From assembly GCA_963815455.1 (NCBI GenBank), contig CAWFGO010000001.1:768001-832000 (forward strand): 64,000 nucleotides of DNA, in the 5' to 3' direction. Positions 42,914 through 58,812 of this stretch are shown one piece after another. How positions within the stretch are numbered: the first letter of the stretch is position 1; each line of letters opens with the position of its first letter. The notes beneath the pieces were generated by a model. The model saw only the letters and a list, made by a program, of their open reading frames with translations. It did not search any database and was not told where the DNA came from. The DNA comes from an uncultured Verrucomicrobiae bacterium. Its GTDB lineage: Bacteria; Verrucomicrobiota; Verrucomicrobiia; Chthoniobacterales; UBA10450. A program made the translations under genes and the position numbers.

Positions 42914-43033
42914 GTCATCCCGAGCGAAATCGCCTGCCGCGCCGTAGCTTTTTGCGAAGGCGGGAGGGATCCCGGAGTATTACCTTGAGGCTTACGGGAT
43001 CTTCCGACTTCGCTTCGCTCCGCTCAAGATGAC
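42914..43033. repeat. GTCAT..ATGAC repeat, copy 3, with a nested GCCGTAGC..GAAGGCGG element
   Basis: GTCATCCCGAGCGAAATC[GCCTGCCGCGCCGTAGCTTTTTGCGAAGGCGG]GAGGGATCCCG..GCTCAAGATGAC. Confidence 0.8.
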
Positions 43034-45466: not shown

Positions 45467-45534
45467 CTGTAGCGGCGGTCTCTGACCGTCGCATATTCAA
45501 CGCCCCTCTTTGCGGCTGACAAGTCGCCCCTACA
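45467..45534. repeat. GTAG-type REP-like pair between convergent genes
   Basis: CTGTAGCGGCGGTCTCTGACCGTCGC..GCGGCTGACAAGTCGCCCCTACA; left half nearly identical to 58721. Confidence 0.8.
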
Positions 45535-47013: not shown

Positions 47014-48117
47014 GTGCACCCGCACGACAAGCTTTTCACTCCCGGCCCGGTCGAGGTCTCCGCAAAAACGCTGGCGGCATTCTCGCGACCGATGATCGGT
47101 CATCGCGGCGAAGATTTTAAGAATCTTTACCGCGACATTCATCCGAAACTGCAAACGCTCTTCGGCACGAAACAGCCGGTCTTTCTTTCCAGTTCATCGG
47201 CCTGGGGCGTGATGGAAGCATCGATCCGAAATCTGGTCGGCGAGAACGGCCAGTCCGGCTCCGGACTCCTCTGCTGCATGTGCGGCGCGTTCTCCGATAA
47301 ATGGCTCGACGTCGCGAAGCGGTTGCGGCAAAAACGCCGAGCCGCTCCAAGTCGAATGGGGAAAACACATCGATCACAAAGATGTCGATGCAAAACTGGC
47401 GTCAGGAAAGTTCGACACCGTCACATTGATTCATAACGAAACCTCCACCGGCGTGATGAATCCGTTGCCGGAAATTTGCTGCGTCCTCGCCAAATATCCC
47501 GATGTCGCTCTAATCGTGGACACCGTCTCCTCCTTCTCCGCGATGAAGATCGACATGGACGCGCTCGGCATCGACGTCATGCTCACCGGCGCGCAAAAAG
47601 CGCTCGCTCTCCCACCCGGCTTTTCCCTCTTCGCCGTTTCGGAAAAGGCTTTCGCTCGTGCCGAGAAACAGAAAGATCGCGGCTACTATTTCGATTTCTT
47701 CGAGTTCAAAAAACAGCAAGCCAACTGGATGACGCCGACCACACCGAGCATCGGCCACATCTTCGCTTTGCAATCCAAGCTGGAAGAAATCTTCGAAGAA
47801 GGCCTGGAGGCGCGCTATCGATCGTCACGCAAAAACCAACGCCCTCGTCCACGATTGGGTGAAAAGAACGCGGCTTCAATTTCTTCGCCGAAGAAGGCTT
47901 CCGATCAAAAACGCTGACCTGCGTGAAAAATAATCAAGTGGCATCGACATCTTGTCGATGGTCGAAAAAGCTCCGCGAAAAACATCACCTCGTCATCGAC
48001 GCCGGCTACGGCAAACTCAAAGGCCAAACTTTCCGCCTATCCAACATGGGCGACGAAACCGAGGAAACGGTTTCCCATTTGCTCGCTTGCTTGGACGACT
48101 CGCTTTCTGGCGGTTGA
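47014..48117 (+). CDS. class V PLP aminotransferase (alanine-glyoxylate/serine-pyruvate family), frameshifted
   Basis: LFTPGPVEV, MIGHR, HNETSTGV, VDTVSS, GAQKALALPPG, GYGKLKGQTFR. Confidence 0.88.
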
Positions 48118-48168: not shown

Positions 48169-51100
48169 TCAAATTTGATGGGCATCGCGCGCGGCCCTCA
48201 GTGCCTCGGAGGCTAATTTGGCGGAGTGTGCTGGATTCTCGCCGGCTGCCCGGATCGTTTCCCGAACGGCAGCTGTTAGGCGGGCCGGCAAGGGATGCTG
48301 ATTAGGTCCGAACAACGCCTTCATCCATTCAATCGCTACGGCGAAATTTCCCTCGGCGTGGGCGACTGCGATAAGTGGCCAGAGCGCCATCCAATCGAAA
48401 CCATACGGGTCCGGCATTGAATGCCAATCTTCGAGCGCTTGGGTCGCCAGCGTTCTACTCTTCGAATGATCGCCATCTTTCCAGGCGACCCAGGCAAGCG
48501 TCGCATTCGCCATCGCGATGTAATGCACCATGTCGAGTTTGGCCGCCAGCAACATCGCCCGCTTCGCGAACTCCTGGGCCGCAGATTTCGAATTCATCCC
48601 GCGATGCGCCACCGCCAGATAAATCAGAGAGCGGACTTGCAAGACAACATCGCCGATCCTCTCGGCCAATTCGAGCGCCTCATTCAGCGCCGCAACTGAC
48701 TCTTCCAGGTCTCCGTGCCAGAGCCGTACAAAACCCAGCGTAAATTTGAGATGAACCCGCTCGGCCGGATTGTCCCGCTCTTTTGCCAATTCGACTGCGC
48801 GTTCTGCGTATTCCACCGCGGTTGGTGGCGGGCTGTAATGATATTCGCTCAAGAGCGAGAGCGCTCGCATCATGAAGAATTTTGCGCGCTGCATGATCGT
48901 GCCGTGTTTTTCCACATTTGGCTCGACCTGCTCTGCCAGGGTGTTGAGCTCGTCGCATTGTCCAAGCCAGTAAAACAAATGCATTCGCTCATGCTGGATC
49001 TGCGCCCATGCATTCCACCAGCCCGTTCCGCGCGTGGGCAAATCTGACTCCAGTTCGAGTTCAGCGCGGTGCAAACCTTCAAGCGCTTTTTCGAAATCGC
49101 GACGATGAATCCAGCTTAAACCGATTTTCAGCTCCAAACGTGAGCGGGCAATTCGATCGGATTCGGCGACGAGCTTCTCTGCCTGCTCGAATTGATCTCG
49201 CGCTGGTGCGAATTCGCCGTTCAAGATCAGCACATCTCCAAGTCCTTCACGCAGAGTCGCCATCAAGGCGTCGAAAGAAGCGCCCGCCTGCGATTCAGCC
49301 TGCGCAAGAGCGGAACGATAAAAACCGATCGCTTCCAAATTTGAAAAGGTTTCGCGAGCGCGGTCGGCCGCCCGGATAAAGTAAGTGATCGCTTTATCGG
49401 GCACACCGGCTAGCTCGAAATGGCGGCCAAGAACTCCGGACAACTCAGCCAGGCGATCGGGTAGCAGCGTTTCAACCGCTTCTCCCACATGCCGGTGCCA
49501 CTCCCGGCGGGTGACCTGGAGTAGACTTTGGTAAGCGACTTCGTGCGTAATTGCGTGTTGAAAGGTGTACGTCTGATCAAACGTGGCCCTCGAACCCGCA
49601 ATTTGCTCCAAGTACACAAGATTTCGCCGACATAACTCTTCAATCGTTTCGGGCAATGCATGCTCACCCTGTTTTTTGCAGAGGTGAGCAAGAATCCCAA
49701 TTTGAAAAGTGCGCCCAATGACGGATGCGCGTTGCAGAACTCTCTTGGCTGCGGCTGGCAATGAATCAATTCGGGCGGCGATAACGGCCTGCAACGTCGG
49801 CGGAATATCCGAAATATCGTGAATCGTCATTACCCTGGCGTCTCTGACCGCCCGAACTAATTCTTCCAAAAAAAATGGGTTCCCTTCCGCCCGATTAAGA
49901 ATGGCCTGGCGCGTTTGAGAATCATCAATCTCACCCGCGGCGGCAATGAGGTCAGCGCTTTCGCGAGCCGTCAGTGCCGCGAGTTCGATGACTTGAACAC
50001 ATTTTTTCGGAAGCTGAGCCGCGAGCCGGTTGAGTCGCTCCCACACGTTGCTTTCCCGGCGATAAGCAACAACCACCAGCACGGGAGCGTTAACGACGAT
50101 CGGGGCCAAATGCTCCAGGGCCTGAAGCGATGACGGGTCCGCCCAATGCACGTCCTCCCAAACCAGAACGAGCTTTTCCCGTTGCGCTCGCGCTTCCACA
50201 TAACCTCGAAACGCCTCCAAAATCCGGGTTTGCAGAACTTCAGCGCTCAGGTGTTCGAGTCTCTCAACCCACGGTTGTTGAAGAGGCGCTTCAAGAATAC
50301 GAGCCAAATAAGGATAAATTCGTTCGACCCGGTCCGGGGCCAGCTCAAGAATATTTTCGTGGAATGTGCTGTTGATTTTGTGCGGATCTCCGCCGGGTGT
50401 TGTAGCAAGCAACGCGTGCAAGAGATCGCGCATCATTCGATAACCCGTCGTTTCTGCGTACGAAAGAGCGCGCGTTTCAGCCCAACCGGCAAATCTGCTC
50501 AGTCCACGCGTTTCTAGAACAAGGCGACTTTTCCCCAAACCAGCTTCTCCGGAAATGCAAAGCAGAGTACCGTTACCAGTCTTTAGTTGGGCAATCGCAG
50601 ACTTAATCTTTTGCAGTTCACGTTCCCGTCCGAAAAACGGCGTGCGCTTCGAGATCAGCTCGGCTGTTTTAGGTTCGACCTTCGATTCCAGTAGACGATA
50701 AACCGGAAGCGGCTCGGATTTGCCCTTGAGTTCGAGAGGCGGCAACGCCTCAAATTCGAATAGCGTAGCACCTCGGCGAAATGTTTCCGGGCCTACCAAG
50801 ATTTCATTTTCTCCACACGCATCTTCCAAACGTGCGGCGACGTTCACGGTATCGCCCATGACCGAATAATCCTGACGGCCTCGCGCGCCAACCGCCCCTG
50901 CAATCACGGCGCCAGTATTGATCCCAACGTGCAATCCGAGGCTCAAACCGCGCTCGCCGTTGAACGTTTCCAGCGCTGCGACTAGTTCGAGCGAAGTGCG
51001 CAAGGCACGCTCCGGATCGTTTTCGTGGGCAACCGGTGCGCCGAACAAAATCATAATCGCGTCGCCTAAAAACTTATCGATTGTGCCGCCGTAGCGTTGA

Positions 51101-51390
51101 ATCACGGGAACGAACCGCTCAAAGCAGGAATTAACCAGATTGCGGGCTTCTTCTGCCTCCATTTGTTCGGCCAATCGAGTAAAGCCGGAAAGATCCGCAA
51201 ACATCACTGTGACGACCTTGCGTTCGTCGTCATCGCCAGTCTCAAGCCTGGTGGAATGAAGCCTGGCCAGTTGCTCGCGTAACGCTGAGATCGCTGGATC
51301 GACGACAAAGTCGCCTAACAGGGAACGTTGCGCCTCCAGATCGGAAATTGCGCGTTCCAACTGTTCTTTTGTTGCCGGCGTGTCGGCCAT
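48169..51390 (-). CDS. class III adenylate/guanylate cyclase + STAND/AAA ATPase + TPR protein
   Basis: MFADLSGFT, DKFLGDA, GDTVNVAARLE; Walker A GEAGLGKS, Walker B LVWEDVHWAD, GNPFFLEE, winged helix and TPRs. Confidence 0.9.
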   Translation of the reverse strand: MADTPATKEQLERAISDLEAQRSLLGDFVVDPAISALREQLARLHSTRLETGDDDERKVVTVMFADLSGFTRLAEQMEAEEARNLVNSCFERFVPVIQRYGGTIDKFLGDAIMILFGAPVAHENDPERALRTSLELVAALETFNGERGLSLGLHVGINTGAVIAGAVGARGRQDYSVMGDTVNVAARLEDACGENEILVGPETFRRGATLFEFEALPPLELKGKSEPLPVYRLLESKVEPKTAELISKRTPFFGRERELQKIKSAIAQLKTGNGTLLCISGEAGLGKSRLVLETRGLSRFAGWAETRALSYAETTGYRMMRDLLHALLATTPGGDPHKINSTFHENILELAPDRVERIYPYLARILEAPLQQPWVERLEHLSAEVLQTRILEAFRGYVEARAQREKLVLVWEDVHWADPSSLQALEHLAPIVVNAPVLVVVAYRRESNVWERLNRLAAQLPKKCVQVIELAALTARESADLIAAAGEIDDSQTRQAILNRAEGNPFFLEELVRAVRDARVMTIHDISDIPPTLQAVIAARIDSLPAAAKRVLQRASVIGRTFQIGILAHLCKKQGEHALPETIEELCRRNLVYLEQIAGSRATFDQTYTFQHAITHEVAYQSLLQVTRREWHRHVGEAVETLLPDRLAELSGVLGRHFELAGVPDKAITYFIRAADRARETFSNLEAIGFYRSALAQAESQAGASFDALMATLREGLGDVLILNGEFAPARDQFEQAEKLVAESDRIARSRLELKIGLSWIHRRDFEKALEGLHRAELELESDLPTRGTGWWNAWAQIQHERMHLFYWLGQCDELNTLAEQVEPNVEKHGTIMQRAKFFMMRALSLLSEYHYSPPPTAVEYAERAVELAKERDNPAERVHLKFTLGFVRLWHGDLEESVAALNEALELAERIGDVVLQVRSLIYLAVAHRGMNSKSAAQEFAKRAMLLAAKLDMVHYIAMANATLAWVAWKDGDHSKSRTLATQALEDWHSMPDPYGFDWMALWPLIAVAHAEGNFAVAIEWMKALFGPNQHPLPARLTAAVRETIRAAGENPAHSAKLASEALRAARDAHQI

Positions 51391-51474: not shown

Positions 51475-51506
51475 GAAGGGCGCCTTCGTTTCCGAAAGCG
51501 CCCTTC
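51475..51506 (-). terminator. terminator downstream of rnpB
   Basis: GAAGGGCGC..GCGCCCTTC stem followed by TCTTCTTCT on - strand. Confidence 0.7.
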
Positions 51507-51513
51507 ATATTTA

Positions 51514-52027
51514 GATGGCGGTAAGCCGAATTCTGTCCTCCGAATTTCTTCGGAGCGATGATCATTTATCTCACCCCGCCGAGGCGGGACGCCCGGCGAA
51601 ACCGTGACCGGCGGTCAGCAGCCTTCGCATAAAGCTACGGCTTGCCAAGTAGACCGCCGCTACAGCATGGCCATGATGCGACGATACCCGAGGATCATGA
51701 CCCCGAATTTCTTCGGGGCAGGCGGACCGGCTGTCCTCCCTCTGTTTTGTCTTGCACCGCATGGGGTTTTTCGTGCCTCGCGAATTACTCCGCGAGCGGT
51801 GAGCTCTTACCTCGCCTTTTCACCCTTGCCGTTTCCCAGACACGGGAAGCTGTCAGCTTCCCCTACAGTTGTAGTTGCCAAAGAACCGGCGGTCTTTTTT
51901 CTGTGACACTTTCCGTCACCGCGATTTTTCAACCGTGATGCCCGCGTATTCTACGCGGCATGCTGCCGTATGGTGTTCGGACTTTCCTCTGGCAAATCTT
52001 GCGATTCACCAGCGATCATCTGCCATC
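51514..52027 (-). ncRNA. rnpB: RNase P RNA (type A), expanded to about 514 nt
   Basis: - strand GAGGAAAGTCCG, GGAAAGTGTCACAGAAA, AGGGTGAAA..GGTAAGAG, AAACCCC..GCAAG, AGATAAATGA, ACAGAATTCGGCTTA; P1 GATGGC/GCCATC. Confidence 0.95.
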
Positions 52028-53946: not shown

Positions 53947-56824
53947 ATGAACGACGAATTCAAAACGCTGAAGAAATTCGATGCCGGCAAGGGCCGGGAA
54001 GGATTTCTCCATTCACTGCCCGAGTTGGAGAAACAGGGCATCGGGAAAATTTCGCGGTTGCCGGTTAGCATCCGGATCGTGCTCGAGTCGGTGCTGCGCA
54101 ACTGCGACGGCAAGAAAGTTCGGCGCAAGGATGTCGAGATGCTGGCCAATTGGAACGCGAAGAAGCCGGCGAACGAAGAAATTCCGTTCGTGGTGGCGCG
54201 GATCGTTCTTCAGGATTTTACCGGTGTGCCGCTGGTTGTCGATCTTGCCGCGATGCGCAGCGCGGTGAAACGGGTCGGGGGCGATCCAAAAATCATCGAG
54301 CCGCTGGTGCCGGTCGATCTCGTGGTCGATCACTCGGTCCAGGTGGATTTCTTTGGCTCGGCTCAGGCGTTGCGGCTCAATCTCGACATGGAATTCAAAC
54401 GCAACCGCGAGCGCTATCAGTTTCTCAAGTGGGGCCAGCAGGCATTCCAGACGTTCCAACTCATCCCGCCTGGCATCGGCATCGTTCACCAGGTCAATCT
54501 CGAATACCTCGCGAAAGGAGTGCTTTCGCGAAAAATCGAAAATCGAAATTCGAAATTCGAAATTTTCTTCCCCGATACCCTCGTCGGGACCGATTCGCAC
54601 ACGACCATGATCAACGGGCTCGGCGTGGTCGGTTGGGGCGTCGGTGGAATCGAGGCCGAGGCCGGGATGCTGGGTCAACCGGTTTATATCCTGACTCCCG
54701 AAGTGGTCGGCGTGAATTTGAGCGGACGATTGAAGGAAGGCGTCACCGCGACCGATCTCGTCCTGCACATTACGCAGTTGCTGCGCGCGCAAAAAGTGGT
54801 GGGCAAGTTCGTTGAGTTTTACGGCGAAGGCGCGGCATCGCTGCCGGTGCCGGATCGCGCGACGATCGGGAACATGTCGCCGGAATACGGCGCGACGATG
54901 GGATTTTTCCCGGTCGATGACGAATCGGTTGGCGTATTTGCGCGCGACCGGTCGCACCGATGAGCAATGCGCCGCGTTTGAGAATTATTTCCGCGCCCAA
55001 AAAATGTTCGGCATGCCGGGCAAAGGCGACATCGACTACTCAGTCGACCTCGATGTCGATCTTGCCGATGTGCAGCCGGGCGTGGCCGGCCCGAAGCGTC
55101 CGCAGGACCGAATAAATCTTCCCGACCTCGGCGAAACGTTCCGTTCGCTTTTGCAGAAGCCGGTAAAAGACGGCGGGTACGGGAAGGCCGGTGTGGATCT
55201 TGGCGCGAAACATCTGGTTCAATTGAACGGCACACCGCCAGCCGACGGCGACATGCCATCGACGGATAAGCAAAACCAGGGCCTCGATCCGGGCGAAGAA
55301 CGCAACAAGCTCGAGATGATCTCGAATCGCCCTACGCCGGACACAGCAGAGGAATTGGAGGAATCTTCCGGCGACCCGTTCCACCACGGTCAAAGTCGAA
55401 TTGGTCACGGCAGCGTTTTGATTGCCGCGATCACGAGTTGCACGAACACGAGCAACCCGAGCGTAATGCTCGCGGCCGGGTTACTGGCCAAGAAAGCGGT
55501 CGAACGCGGATTGCGTGTCGATCCGGCGGTCAAGACTTCGCTGGCGCCGGGATCGCGCGTGGTGACCGATTATCTGGCGAAGACGGGATTGCAAACATAT
55601 CTCGATCGCCTCGGCTTCAATCTTGTCGGCTACGGCTGCACAACCTGCATTGGCAATTCCGGTCCGCTGCATCCGAAAATCGAAAAAGCGATTAGCGAAT
55701 ACGATCTGGTCGCGGCCTCGGTGCTTTCGGGAAATCGCAATTTCGAGGCCCGCGTGCATCAGAACATCAAAGCGAACTTCCTCATGTCACCGCCATTGGT
55801 GGTGGCGTTCGCGCTGGCCGGGCGCGTCGATGTCGATCTTACCAGGGAACCGATCGGGAAGGATAAGGACGGGAAGAAAACGTTTTTGCGCGATCTCTGG
55901 CCACAGTTGAAAGAAATCCGCGACGCCATGCAATCGGCGTTGAAGCCGGAGATTTTCCGGAACCTTTATCGCGATTTCGCCGAGCAAAATCCGAAGTGGA
56001 ACGAGATTCCGTCAACCAAAGGCGAGGTTTACGTTTGGGATGAAAAAAGCGATTACATCCACGAGCCGCCGTTCTTTGAGAATTTTTCGATGGAGACCGG
56101 CAAGATCGACAACATTACTGGCGCGCGCGCGCTCGGGATTTTCGGCGATTCGGTAACGACCGATCACATTTCGCCGGCGGGCGCGATCAAGGCCACGTCG
56201 CCGGCTGGACAATATCTGATCTCGCGCGGGATTAAGCCGGAAGATTTCAACAGCTACGGTTCGCGACGCGGAAATGATCTGGTCATGACCCGGGGAACGT
56301 TCGCCAATGTCCGGATCAAGAACCTGATGGTGCCGGGAACGGAAGGAGGCGTGACAAAACATCAACCCGACGGTGAACAGATGTCGATCTTCGATGCGGC
56401 GATGAAATATCAGGCCGCCGGAACGCCGCTCGTAATTCTTGCCGGGCACGAGTACGGCACCGGTTCGTCGCGCGACTGGGCGGCGAAAGGGACCCGCTTG
56501 TTAGGCGTAAAAGCCGTGATCGCGGCCAGCTACGAGCGGATCCATCGTTCGAACCTGGTCGGGATGGGCGTGTTGCCATTGCAATTTCTCGAGGGCACAA
56601 ACGCGCAAACGCTCGGACTCGACGGTTCGGAGACTTTTTCAATTACCGGATTATCCGACGCGATCCAACCAGGGCAGGATTTAAAACTCGAGATCGCGGG
56701 TAAAAATGGACAATCGCGCTCCGTGCCGGTGAAGCTGCGAATCGATACACCGATCGAGGTCGATTACTACAAGCACGGCGGGATCTTGCCGTTCGTGCTT
56801 CGGCAATTGCTCACGGGCAAGTGA
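53947..56824 (+). CDS. acnA: aconitate hydratase A (frameshift near 54930)
   Basis: [64 protein letters not shown]. Confidence 0.96.
54535..54564 (+). repeat. heptamer tandem repeat (WTCGAAA)x4 in frame within acnA
   Basis: ATCGAAA ATCGAAA TTCGAAA TTCGAAA encoding [10 protein letters not shown]. Confidence 0.8.
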
Positions 56825-58720: not shown

Positions 58721-58812
58721 CTGTAGCGGCGGTCTCCGACCGTCGCAAACGTTGCGAGAAAATCGGCAGGCGAGACGCCTACCGGCCGCCACAGGCAAGA
58801 TGCCTGTGCTAC
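58721..58812. repeat. GTAG-type REP-like cluster
   Basis: CTGTAGCGGCGGTCTCCGACCGTCGC..AGGCGAGACGCCT..CACAGGCAAGATGCCTGTGCTAC. Confidence 0.75.

Follow-up and report, generated by a model that had tools for sequence, protein, structure and literature searches.

Introduction

How do dispersed palindromic repeats come to stand inside the gene of an essential ribozyme, and what becomes of them there? The question is raised by rnpB, the gene of the class A RNase P RNA, which trims tRNAs, in a stretch of 64,000 nucleotides (the window) from an uncultured Verrucomicrobiae soil bacterium of the order Chthoniobacterales; coordinates below count from its first letter. A sequence-only reading of this DNA had proposed that the gene has absorbed at least four palindromic elements, one of them nested in another. 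Repeats in rnpB are already known. Rickettsia palindromic elements (RPEs) occur in the M1 RNA and tmRNA genes and are thought to be neutral (Ogata 2002, as cited in PMC2229807), and STRR repeats are described from cyanobacterial rnpB (Vioque 1997). GTAG-REPs are reported from Verrucomicrobia, inside protein genes and inside other palindromes, by PMC3733652, the main text of which contains neither "RNase P" nor "tmRNA". The way in which REPs spread, and a possible rewriting of resident copies by RAYTs, are open questions (PMC8266576; 10.1101/2024.10.14.618302). For the REPINs of Pseudomonas chlororaphis, in-place overwriting has been proposed (10.1101/2024.10.14.618302). Our literature search, which covered papers without their supplements, where such inserts may be listed, found no paper on REPs in Chthoniobacterales rnpB; the available text of PMC1874661, PMC2267715 and 10.64898/2026.09.22.753630 holds nothing on REPs in rnpB.

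In this study, we follow these inserts from the source genome through its family. What is new here is the presence of RAYT-linked REPs in rnpB, their nesting, and a measurable turnover at fixed ribozyme sites across a family.

An intact RNase P RNA gene with enlarged outer helices

The features on which the analysis rests are the following.

51510..52027, minus strand: rnpB, class A RNase P RNA gene (RF00010), 518 nt, single copy, core intact
51475..51506, minus strand: terminator-like hairpin 3' of rnpB, 14-pair stem with a T-rich tail, kept in the close relative L182
51538..51555, minus strand: P19 hairpin, D-like but a common family form (14-mer in 15 of 133 genes, 9 genera)
51572..51591, minus strand: P18 proper, 8 possible pairs and a CUCG loop, not GNRA, assigned by eye against relatives
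51595..51675 (ends approximate), minus strand: P18a, an extra helix between P15 and P18, family-wide (118 of 123 genes; local fold)
51609..51665, minus strand: element B, a GTAG-REP in P18a, split by C (dispersed sites, inverted pairs, RAYT flanks)
51618..51649 (core 51621-51641), minus strand: element C, a 32-nt insertion in the B loop (clean gap against L182)
51701..51718, minus strand: element D, a 7-bp palindrome, GAAA-loop variant, extending P16/17 (variable-centre sites)
51844..51868, minus strand: element A, a GTAG-REP at the P12 tip (repeat copies, RAYT flanks in relatives, hairpin fold)
51887..51895, minus strand: nine bases at the P12 base complementary to the left arm of B, a predicted competing pairing in the source genome
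42941..42961, plus strand: copy of C inside a CGTC-type repeat (sequence match)
45467..45491, plus strand: free copy of B (sequence match)
58721..58745, plus strand: free copy of B (sequence match)

RF00010 matched 51510-52027 on the minus strand with 196.5 bits (E 4.4e-62, model positions 1-367, gathering score 100). The sequence-only reading had placed the gene at 51514..52027, about 514 nt as against the 377 nt that it gave for the M1 RNA of E. coli; the match gives 518 nt, and the strings that it had quoted are all in place. As had been expected, the insert segments map outside the model columns: the model takes up the P12 extension in insert columns and leaves 102 nt unaligned at the P18 position. 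The source genome (G000, a 3.62-Mb assembly, 90% complete) contains one rnpB match only. Its rnpA was found (PF00825, 90.8 bits), and PF08745, which we take as a stand-in for protein-only RNase P, had no match in this 90%-complete assembly. Once the variable helices are taken out, the gene agrees with the family at every one of the 176 columns having at least 95% conservation, and its identity to rnpB of the genus mate G001 is 95.6%; it therefore does not look like a pseudogene. Judged from this conservation it is predicted to encode an active, working RNase P RNA, and this prediction is part of the explanation that we favour. Its likeness to class A RNA lies in the full-length match and in the presence of all family-conserved core columns. 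It differs in a core of 468 nt against a family median of 360 (~108 nt longer, second of 133 family genes, with only G070 longer), in the extra helix before P18 and in the non-GNRA L18. No match to a sigma-70 promoter was found for rnpB.

The gene directly downstream (48169-51390, minus) encodes 1073 aa, and its matches to cyclase and TPR families are weak and stay below the cut-off. On the plus strand, an aconitase extends over two overlapping frames (53947-56824; PF00330 4-241 and 241-463), likely a long-read frameshift, and a class V aminotransferase (47014-47917) is apparently broken across frames, with PF00266 146-277 in its second piece.

Elements A and B are RAYT-linked GTAG-REPs

Free-standing copies of B at 45467 and 58721 and of C at 42941 had been noticed in the window, and all three are present. 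In the source genome the full B pattern with at most one mismatch has 77 sites, the rnpB copy counted, and its reversed control has 0. The 15-mer left arm alone, a weaker test, gives 116 sites at 2 mismatches against 2-44 for shuffles. Inverted pairs account for 46 of 103 left-arm sites, and 22 of the 103 lie in mechanically called ORFs of at least 200 aa, which cover 72% of the genome. Such inverted pairs border on both sides a RAYT gene at G000:C3:533888-534421, which scores 102.4 bits with NF047646 (cut-off 80) and is one of 16 Y1_Tnp hits. Among 30 RAYT-like loci in five relatives, B flanks L341, L351 and L364, and A stands on both sides of L343, in G068. Element A has 8 exact sites in the source genome and 23 at up to 3 mismatches, again with the rnpB copy, whereas shuffled A and C patterns (ten each) gave 0 sites at 2 mismatches. 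Like B, it has a 5' GTAG followed by a short palindrome and is present in many copies; 9 of 24 sites lie in mechanical ORFs of at least 200 aa and 4 of 24 in inverted pairs. All 16 Y1_Tnp hits of the 90% complete source genome were scanned, and 11 regions re-examined, with no RAYT gene flanked by A, C or D.

From the GTAG tag, the pairs and the RAYT flanks, A and B are therefore GTAG-REPs, and the GTAG hairpin already seen in the P12 segment is confirmed as a dispersed element. An origin of B in rnpB itself is unlikely, as B flanks RAYT genes and other families are without B in rnpB. Compared with the GTAG-REPs and REPINs that accompany RAYT (TnpA-REP) genes, as described in PMC3733652, PMC3686654 and PMC8266576, A and B share the tag, the stem-loop, the doublets and a flanked RAYT gene. 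The difference is that here they stand inside an essential ribozyme gene across a family, and that no RAYT gene flanked by C or D was found in the source genome.

Elements C and D stand mostly within other hairpins

Element C has 7 exact sites in the source genome and 28 at up to 3 mismatches (rnpB copy counted), 20 of the 28 within a CGTC-type repeat. Its GTAG is internal, not 5', and two copies lie ~0.9 kb from one Y1 hit. L182, which shares the A junction with the source genome, has B without C, leaving a clean 32-nt gap; no target duplication was seen at the C junction in rnpB. C is nested in B once more at G000:C5:164457, where the junctions are different. The elements described here measure 18-32 nt, and neither this size nor the C junction agrees with the RPE/MITE type of 100-200 bp with terminal inverted repeats or target duplication (sizes after PMC2229807).

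As an 18-mer, D is rare in the source genome (1 exact site, 7 at up to 2 mismatches). Allowing the centre to vary raises this to 41 sites (control 0), of which 15 lie in CGTC-type repeats, 5 in GTAG-REPs and 2 in tRNA copies; the other 19 are elsewhere. D has no GTAG tag and, as a bare palindrome with a variable centre, is not classed as a GTAG-REP. Both C and D mostly sit within other hairpins. At P16/17 a D-like hairpin occurs in 24 of 133 family genes by a loose pattern and in 9 by a strict one. A D variant sits in the B loop of G078, and D stands at P19 in G134 and G158, members of a clade that is otherwise mostly without P19. The sequence-only reading had P16/17 and P19 of the source genome carrying one string; a 14-mer is common to both, but the outer arms differ and the P19 form is ordinary in the family. 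Its central claim, at least four dispersed palindromic copies in rnpB with one nested in another, is supported.

The CGTC-type repeat, the main host of C and D, has 125-157 sites in the source genome by two loose patterns, and the genome carries 16 Y1_Tnp-family genes. At G000:C1:173880-174350 (L370) an intact tRNA-Met gene and two partial copies surround an 80-aa GIY-YIG gene (PF01541, 49.5 bits); in both partial copies D stands exactly where the anticodon arm would be.

Distribution of the inserts in the family

We searched 150 family genomes, of which 136 matched, and parsed 133 full-length genes including that of the source genome; four partial rnpB genes and five second copies were left out. 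Three genomes flagged unpublished (G003, G015, G151) are in the counts (G151 as intact B) and not in the tree. The rpoB tree (FastTree) has 124 family tips and 5 outgroups; 9 genomes without a fetched rpoB were omitted, and several deep nodes are weak. Taking as B-derived all copies with at most 6 edits, plus G078 and G136 by eye, we found B-derived sequence in 41 of 133 genes from 16 genera, 28 of them intact, and 92 genes without B. Element A is in 11 of 133 genes (8 genera), and C in that of the source genome alone (1 of 133). The inserts had been pictured as an event in a single genome; A and B instead prove to be family-wide and patchy. Both are absent from 15 of 15 rnpB genes from other families of the order, which agrees with that reading.

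Carriers of A and B are scattered on the rpoB tree. B-derived sequence needs 26 changes, against a mean of 33 and a minimum of 24 in 300 shuffles; one origin would mean 38 losses, and gains alone 27 events. D at P16/17 takes 19 changes. Element A takes 9 changes when rooted as absent, by 9 gains as compared with 19 losses. Each of the 11 genomes carrying A has at least 3 matches to it (rnpB copy included where matching), whereas 66 of the 122 other genomes have none. Most B alleles share a 3' flank that is missing from free copies and recurs across genera, which suggests common descent for most of them; the B allele of g20, with flanks like those of free copies, looks like a separate gain. No empty site resembling the B-form minus B was seen among the family rnpB genes. 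L182 shows a GAAA P18 loop, has no D at P16/17, and has gained D in P3 and, in P12, a second REP that is oriented the other way; its P19 holds another palindrome.

Among genome contigs, 37 loci hold an rnpB-B junction, by their titles mostly from Chthoniobacterales or Verrucomicrobia and two from Candidatus Udaeobacter. One record titled Nitrospirota (L179) has a Chthoniobacterales-type rnpB with B, either a mis-binned contig or a transfer. Of the second rnpB copies in five family genomes (L031, L059, L093, L070, L116), three look foreign to the family and are probably bin contamination. The rnpB at L022 (G037, another family) is AT-rich, with a very long P16/17 region and a core of 460 nt.

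P18, the extra helix and the fold

Folding was done with a secondary-structure model that has no pseudoknots or protein; whole-RNA folds are unreliable under it, and only local hairpins are read. Two hairpins were found in 118 of the 123 genes having the P18 region, the second folded one lying 5' of the last. The commonest form of the 3' hairpin is an 8-bp stem capped by GNRA, a loop present in 79 of the 121 genes folded, and we therefore take it as P18 proper and the 5' one as the extra helix. The automatic split between P18a and P18 is approximate, and some genes, that of the source genome included, were mis-cut; for its P18 the folding program favours another register. B had been placed inside P18; it is present, but in the extra helix 5' of it. 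Both hairpins are absent in 10 of 133 genes, from four genera. The suggestion that the P18 tetraloop contact had been lost or replaced holds for the loop, which is not GNRA, and fails in its link to the insert: P18 is kept 3' of B, and loss of GNRA is not tied to B, because GNRA is still present in 25 of the 38 B-derived genes that were parsed, as it is in 54 of the 83 others. A GNRA loop on P18 for the L18-P8 contact is typical of class A RNA but not universal. By comparison with relatives, the L18-P8 contact has probably been lost in the source genome, independently of B. According to PMC8457005, RNase P from three species loses activity by a factor of 6 to 37 in vitro when L18-P8 is disrupted; the same paper describes P18 loss as tolerated and P18 as absent in some clades.

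In the source genome the pairing of the P12 base with the B left arm takes 0.74 of the unconstrained ensemble, against at most 0.14 in 27 relatives with intact B; the B stem forms in 0.75-1.0 of the ensemble in 26 of these 27. In the model the arm pairs with the P12 base here because of one base at that place and the larger loop. When the 3' domain is folded alone, the B stem forms fully, and the competing pairing is a weak prediction of the model. The hairpins of A (probability 0.8-1.0), D and P19 are stable in the full-length ensemble. Across the 38 parsed B-derived genes the B stem pairs are kept in 34-38, and two decayed copies show a double-sided stem change; RNAalifold on the 38 P18a sequences gives the inner 7 pairs only, the outer stem being unaligned.

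In G070, G087, G018, G106 and G075 (L058, L060, L021, L066, L044) a palindrome of ~30-70 nt replaces P18 proper, and in G070 a long palindrome also replaces P19, a further family entering rnpB. The TCCCGC-type P18a allele is a low-copy dispersed palindrome. The GCGAAT-type allele was rejected as a genome-wide repeat, with 1-3 matches per genome in 5 of 5.

Support from RNA libraries and contigs

None of the 24 runs listed contains this strain, the best share of its words being 0.23. Contigs from three RNA runs accumulate over the rnpB core, with none on either outer flank; the sequences are those of relatives. Element A is spanned, at 3-5 differences, by RNA-library contigs of relatives in two studies: X16 record 11 extends past it by over 31 letters in both directions, and X17 records 20 and 21 have 25 letters on one flank. 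X16 record 9 reaches the 5' arm of B. Contigs as such are silent on strand and maturity. None of 4 runs, all of relatives and with a DNA run included, gave any cover of the C region (bin 51608-51633), which is no evidence of absence. The C nest was found in 0 cases in two metagenome-contig scans and in none of the 37 genome-contig rnpB-B loci. Of the inserts that RNA or reads had been proposed to confirm, A is spanned by relatives' contigs and C is uncovered.

A probable link between the rnpB copy and the resident REP population

The median number of free B copies is 59 where the rnpB B is intact and 9.5 where it is absent; 58 of the 92 genomes without it still hold at least 5 free copies. Sister contrasts of free B against intact rnpB B favour the association in 15 of 19, with one tie and three against (p 0.019), and edits in the rnpB copy become more numerous as free copies get fewer (rho -0.63, kin not being independent). 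The loop was compared in 33 B-carrying genomes, 21 of which have TAT or TCT in rnpB and at least 5 free copies. In 20 of the 21 the rnpB loop is the commoner free variant, and TAT/TCT changes 4 times on the rpoB tree. The B copies of G017 and G061 have the same flanks and different loops, each matching its own genome. Strict tracking is contradicted by G120 (TCC with 14 free copies against 68 of TCT), G009 (TAC 2 against TAT 29), G166 (TGT, 1 free) and G112 (TTT, 0 free). Loops other than TAT/TCT also stand in the rnpB B of G101, G023 and G080.

Of 27 intact rnpB copies of B, 20 have a 3' arm that makes a perfect stem, whereas in the source genome 47 of 55 free copies show the wobble form, which is not expected from conversion of whole elements. 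In G052 the RAYT-flanking B has TAT and the rnpB B has TCT. From these loop mismatches, the stem-form preference and G052, updating of the rnpB copy therefore looks episodic and filtered by selection for pairing.

Discussion

We consider it likely that the outer helices of this RNA are tolerant landing sites, in which REP inserts are turned over and at times overwritten in place. The dispensable sites would be the P12 tip, P16/17, the extra helix before P18 and P19, with P3 in some relatives; the occupancy of each insert site changes many times across the family. Self-folding at the tip of a helix would be what lets an insert survive, transcribed as part of the RNA. Most rnpB copies of B may go back to one old insertion, with at least one later gain. 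Where the REP family is abundant, the rnpB copy would occasionally be overwritten from free copies, by RAYT nick-and-repair or gene conversion; where the family dies out, it would decay yet keep its pairing. C would have entered the B of the source genome recently.

Patchiness could also arise without repeated REP activity at the site, if homologous recombination in the conserved flanks carried whole variable helices from one soil bacterium to its relatives. A change of state does affect P18a in its entirety, with no remainder free of B left behind, G077 and G088, of different genera, differ at 2 of 49 positions, and a single-copy, non-REP P18a allele is near-identical in g10, g20, g24 and g43, a sign of exchange between species or else of old alleles. 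The signal of an rnpB core tree was too low to test lateral exchange. We nevertheless think it unlikely that such exchange is the explanation, since it leaves unexplained the 20 of 21 loops that match the host's free variant, the intactness that follows copy number, and G079, which has a different resident REP in P12 and belongs to a genus with A in 0 of 6 genomes. It could act together with turnover by REPs. Fresh insertions at a hotspot, each independent and with no updating in place, are a simpler reading for A with its 9 gains against 19 losses. For B they would agree with the 27 gains as against 38 losses from a single origin and with the g20 flanks, and L182 did gain a second REP in P12 and D in P3; the recurrence across genera of a 3' flank foreign to free REPs and the missing empty site make insertion alone very unlikely.

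B in P18a, or A in P12, might instead have taken on a function, with its sequence kept by selection: it could make a tertiary contact that stands in for L18-P8, protect from nucleases or bind a protein. The REP consensus stands unedited amid variable flanks in 23 of 133 rnpB genes (the source genome scored by arms), B has one orientation throughout rnpB, the perfect-stem form is preferred, and the stem pairs are kept. This seems distinctly unlikely to us, given that 92 of 133 genes have no B and 10 no such region at all, that P18 GNRA is about equally common with B and without it, that the loop of B varies freely or is interrupted by C or D, and that copies decay where the free family is gone. 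That the C nest, or the long form as such, is an assembly artefact would fit the want of read or contig support for C and the frameshift-like breaks nearby. It is hardly credible in view of A, B and D at the same sites in other assemblies, of the A junction shared with L182 and the clean gap of 32 nt, and of the second, different B+C nest in the source genome.

On its minimal reading, the tolerance of REP turnover in outer helices is another case of neutral repeats in peripheral helices. The RPEs are likewise dispersed palindromic repeats in an RNase P RNA gene; they measure 105-146 bp (PMC2229807), whereas the elements here have 18-32 nt, belong to several families, are nested, occupy several sites and turn over. 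STRRs, too, are genomic repeats within this gene, short and tandem as described by Vioque (1997), where ours are palindromic REPs. The P. chlororaphis REPINs (10.1101/2024.10.14.618302) share with B a fixed site that keeps a REP, the type of which follows the resident REP/RAYT population; those are extragenic doublets in one species, and here a single REP stands in a structured RNA in at least 16 genera. Extragenic REP sites can be traced within species only. The rnpB site is orthologous across at least 16 genera, so that gain, decay and overwriting become countable on a tree and testable in vitro on one short substrate. The family also offers a natural series for RNase P structure, with P18 absent, canonical or non-GNRA and the long extra helix present or not. 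A bolder proposal, which we hold tentatively and regard as possible rather than probable, is that REP/RAYT systems keep rewriting fixed hairpin sites of rnpB throughout the family and that a second tier of modules with an internal tag or none, C and D, targets hairpin tips (those of REPs, RNase P helices and the anticodon arms of duplicated tRNAs) by some replacement mechanism. If this is true, rnpB would keep a record of REP turnover over the depth of the family and would offer a natural, well-defined substrate on which RAYTs carry out editing.
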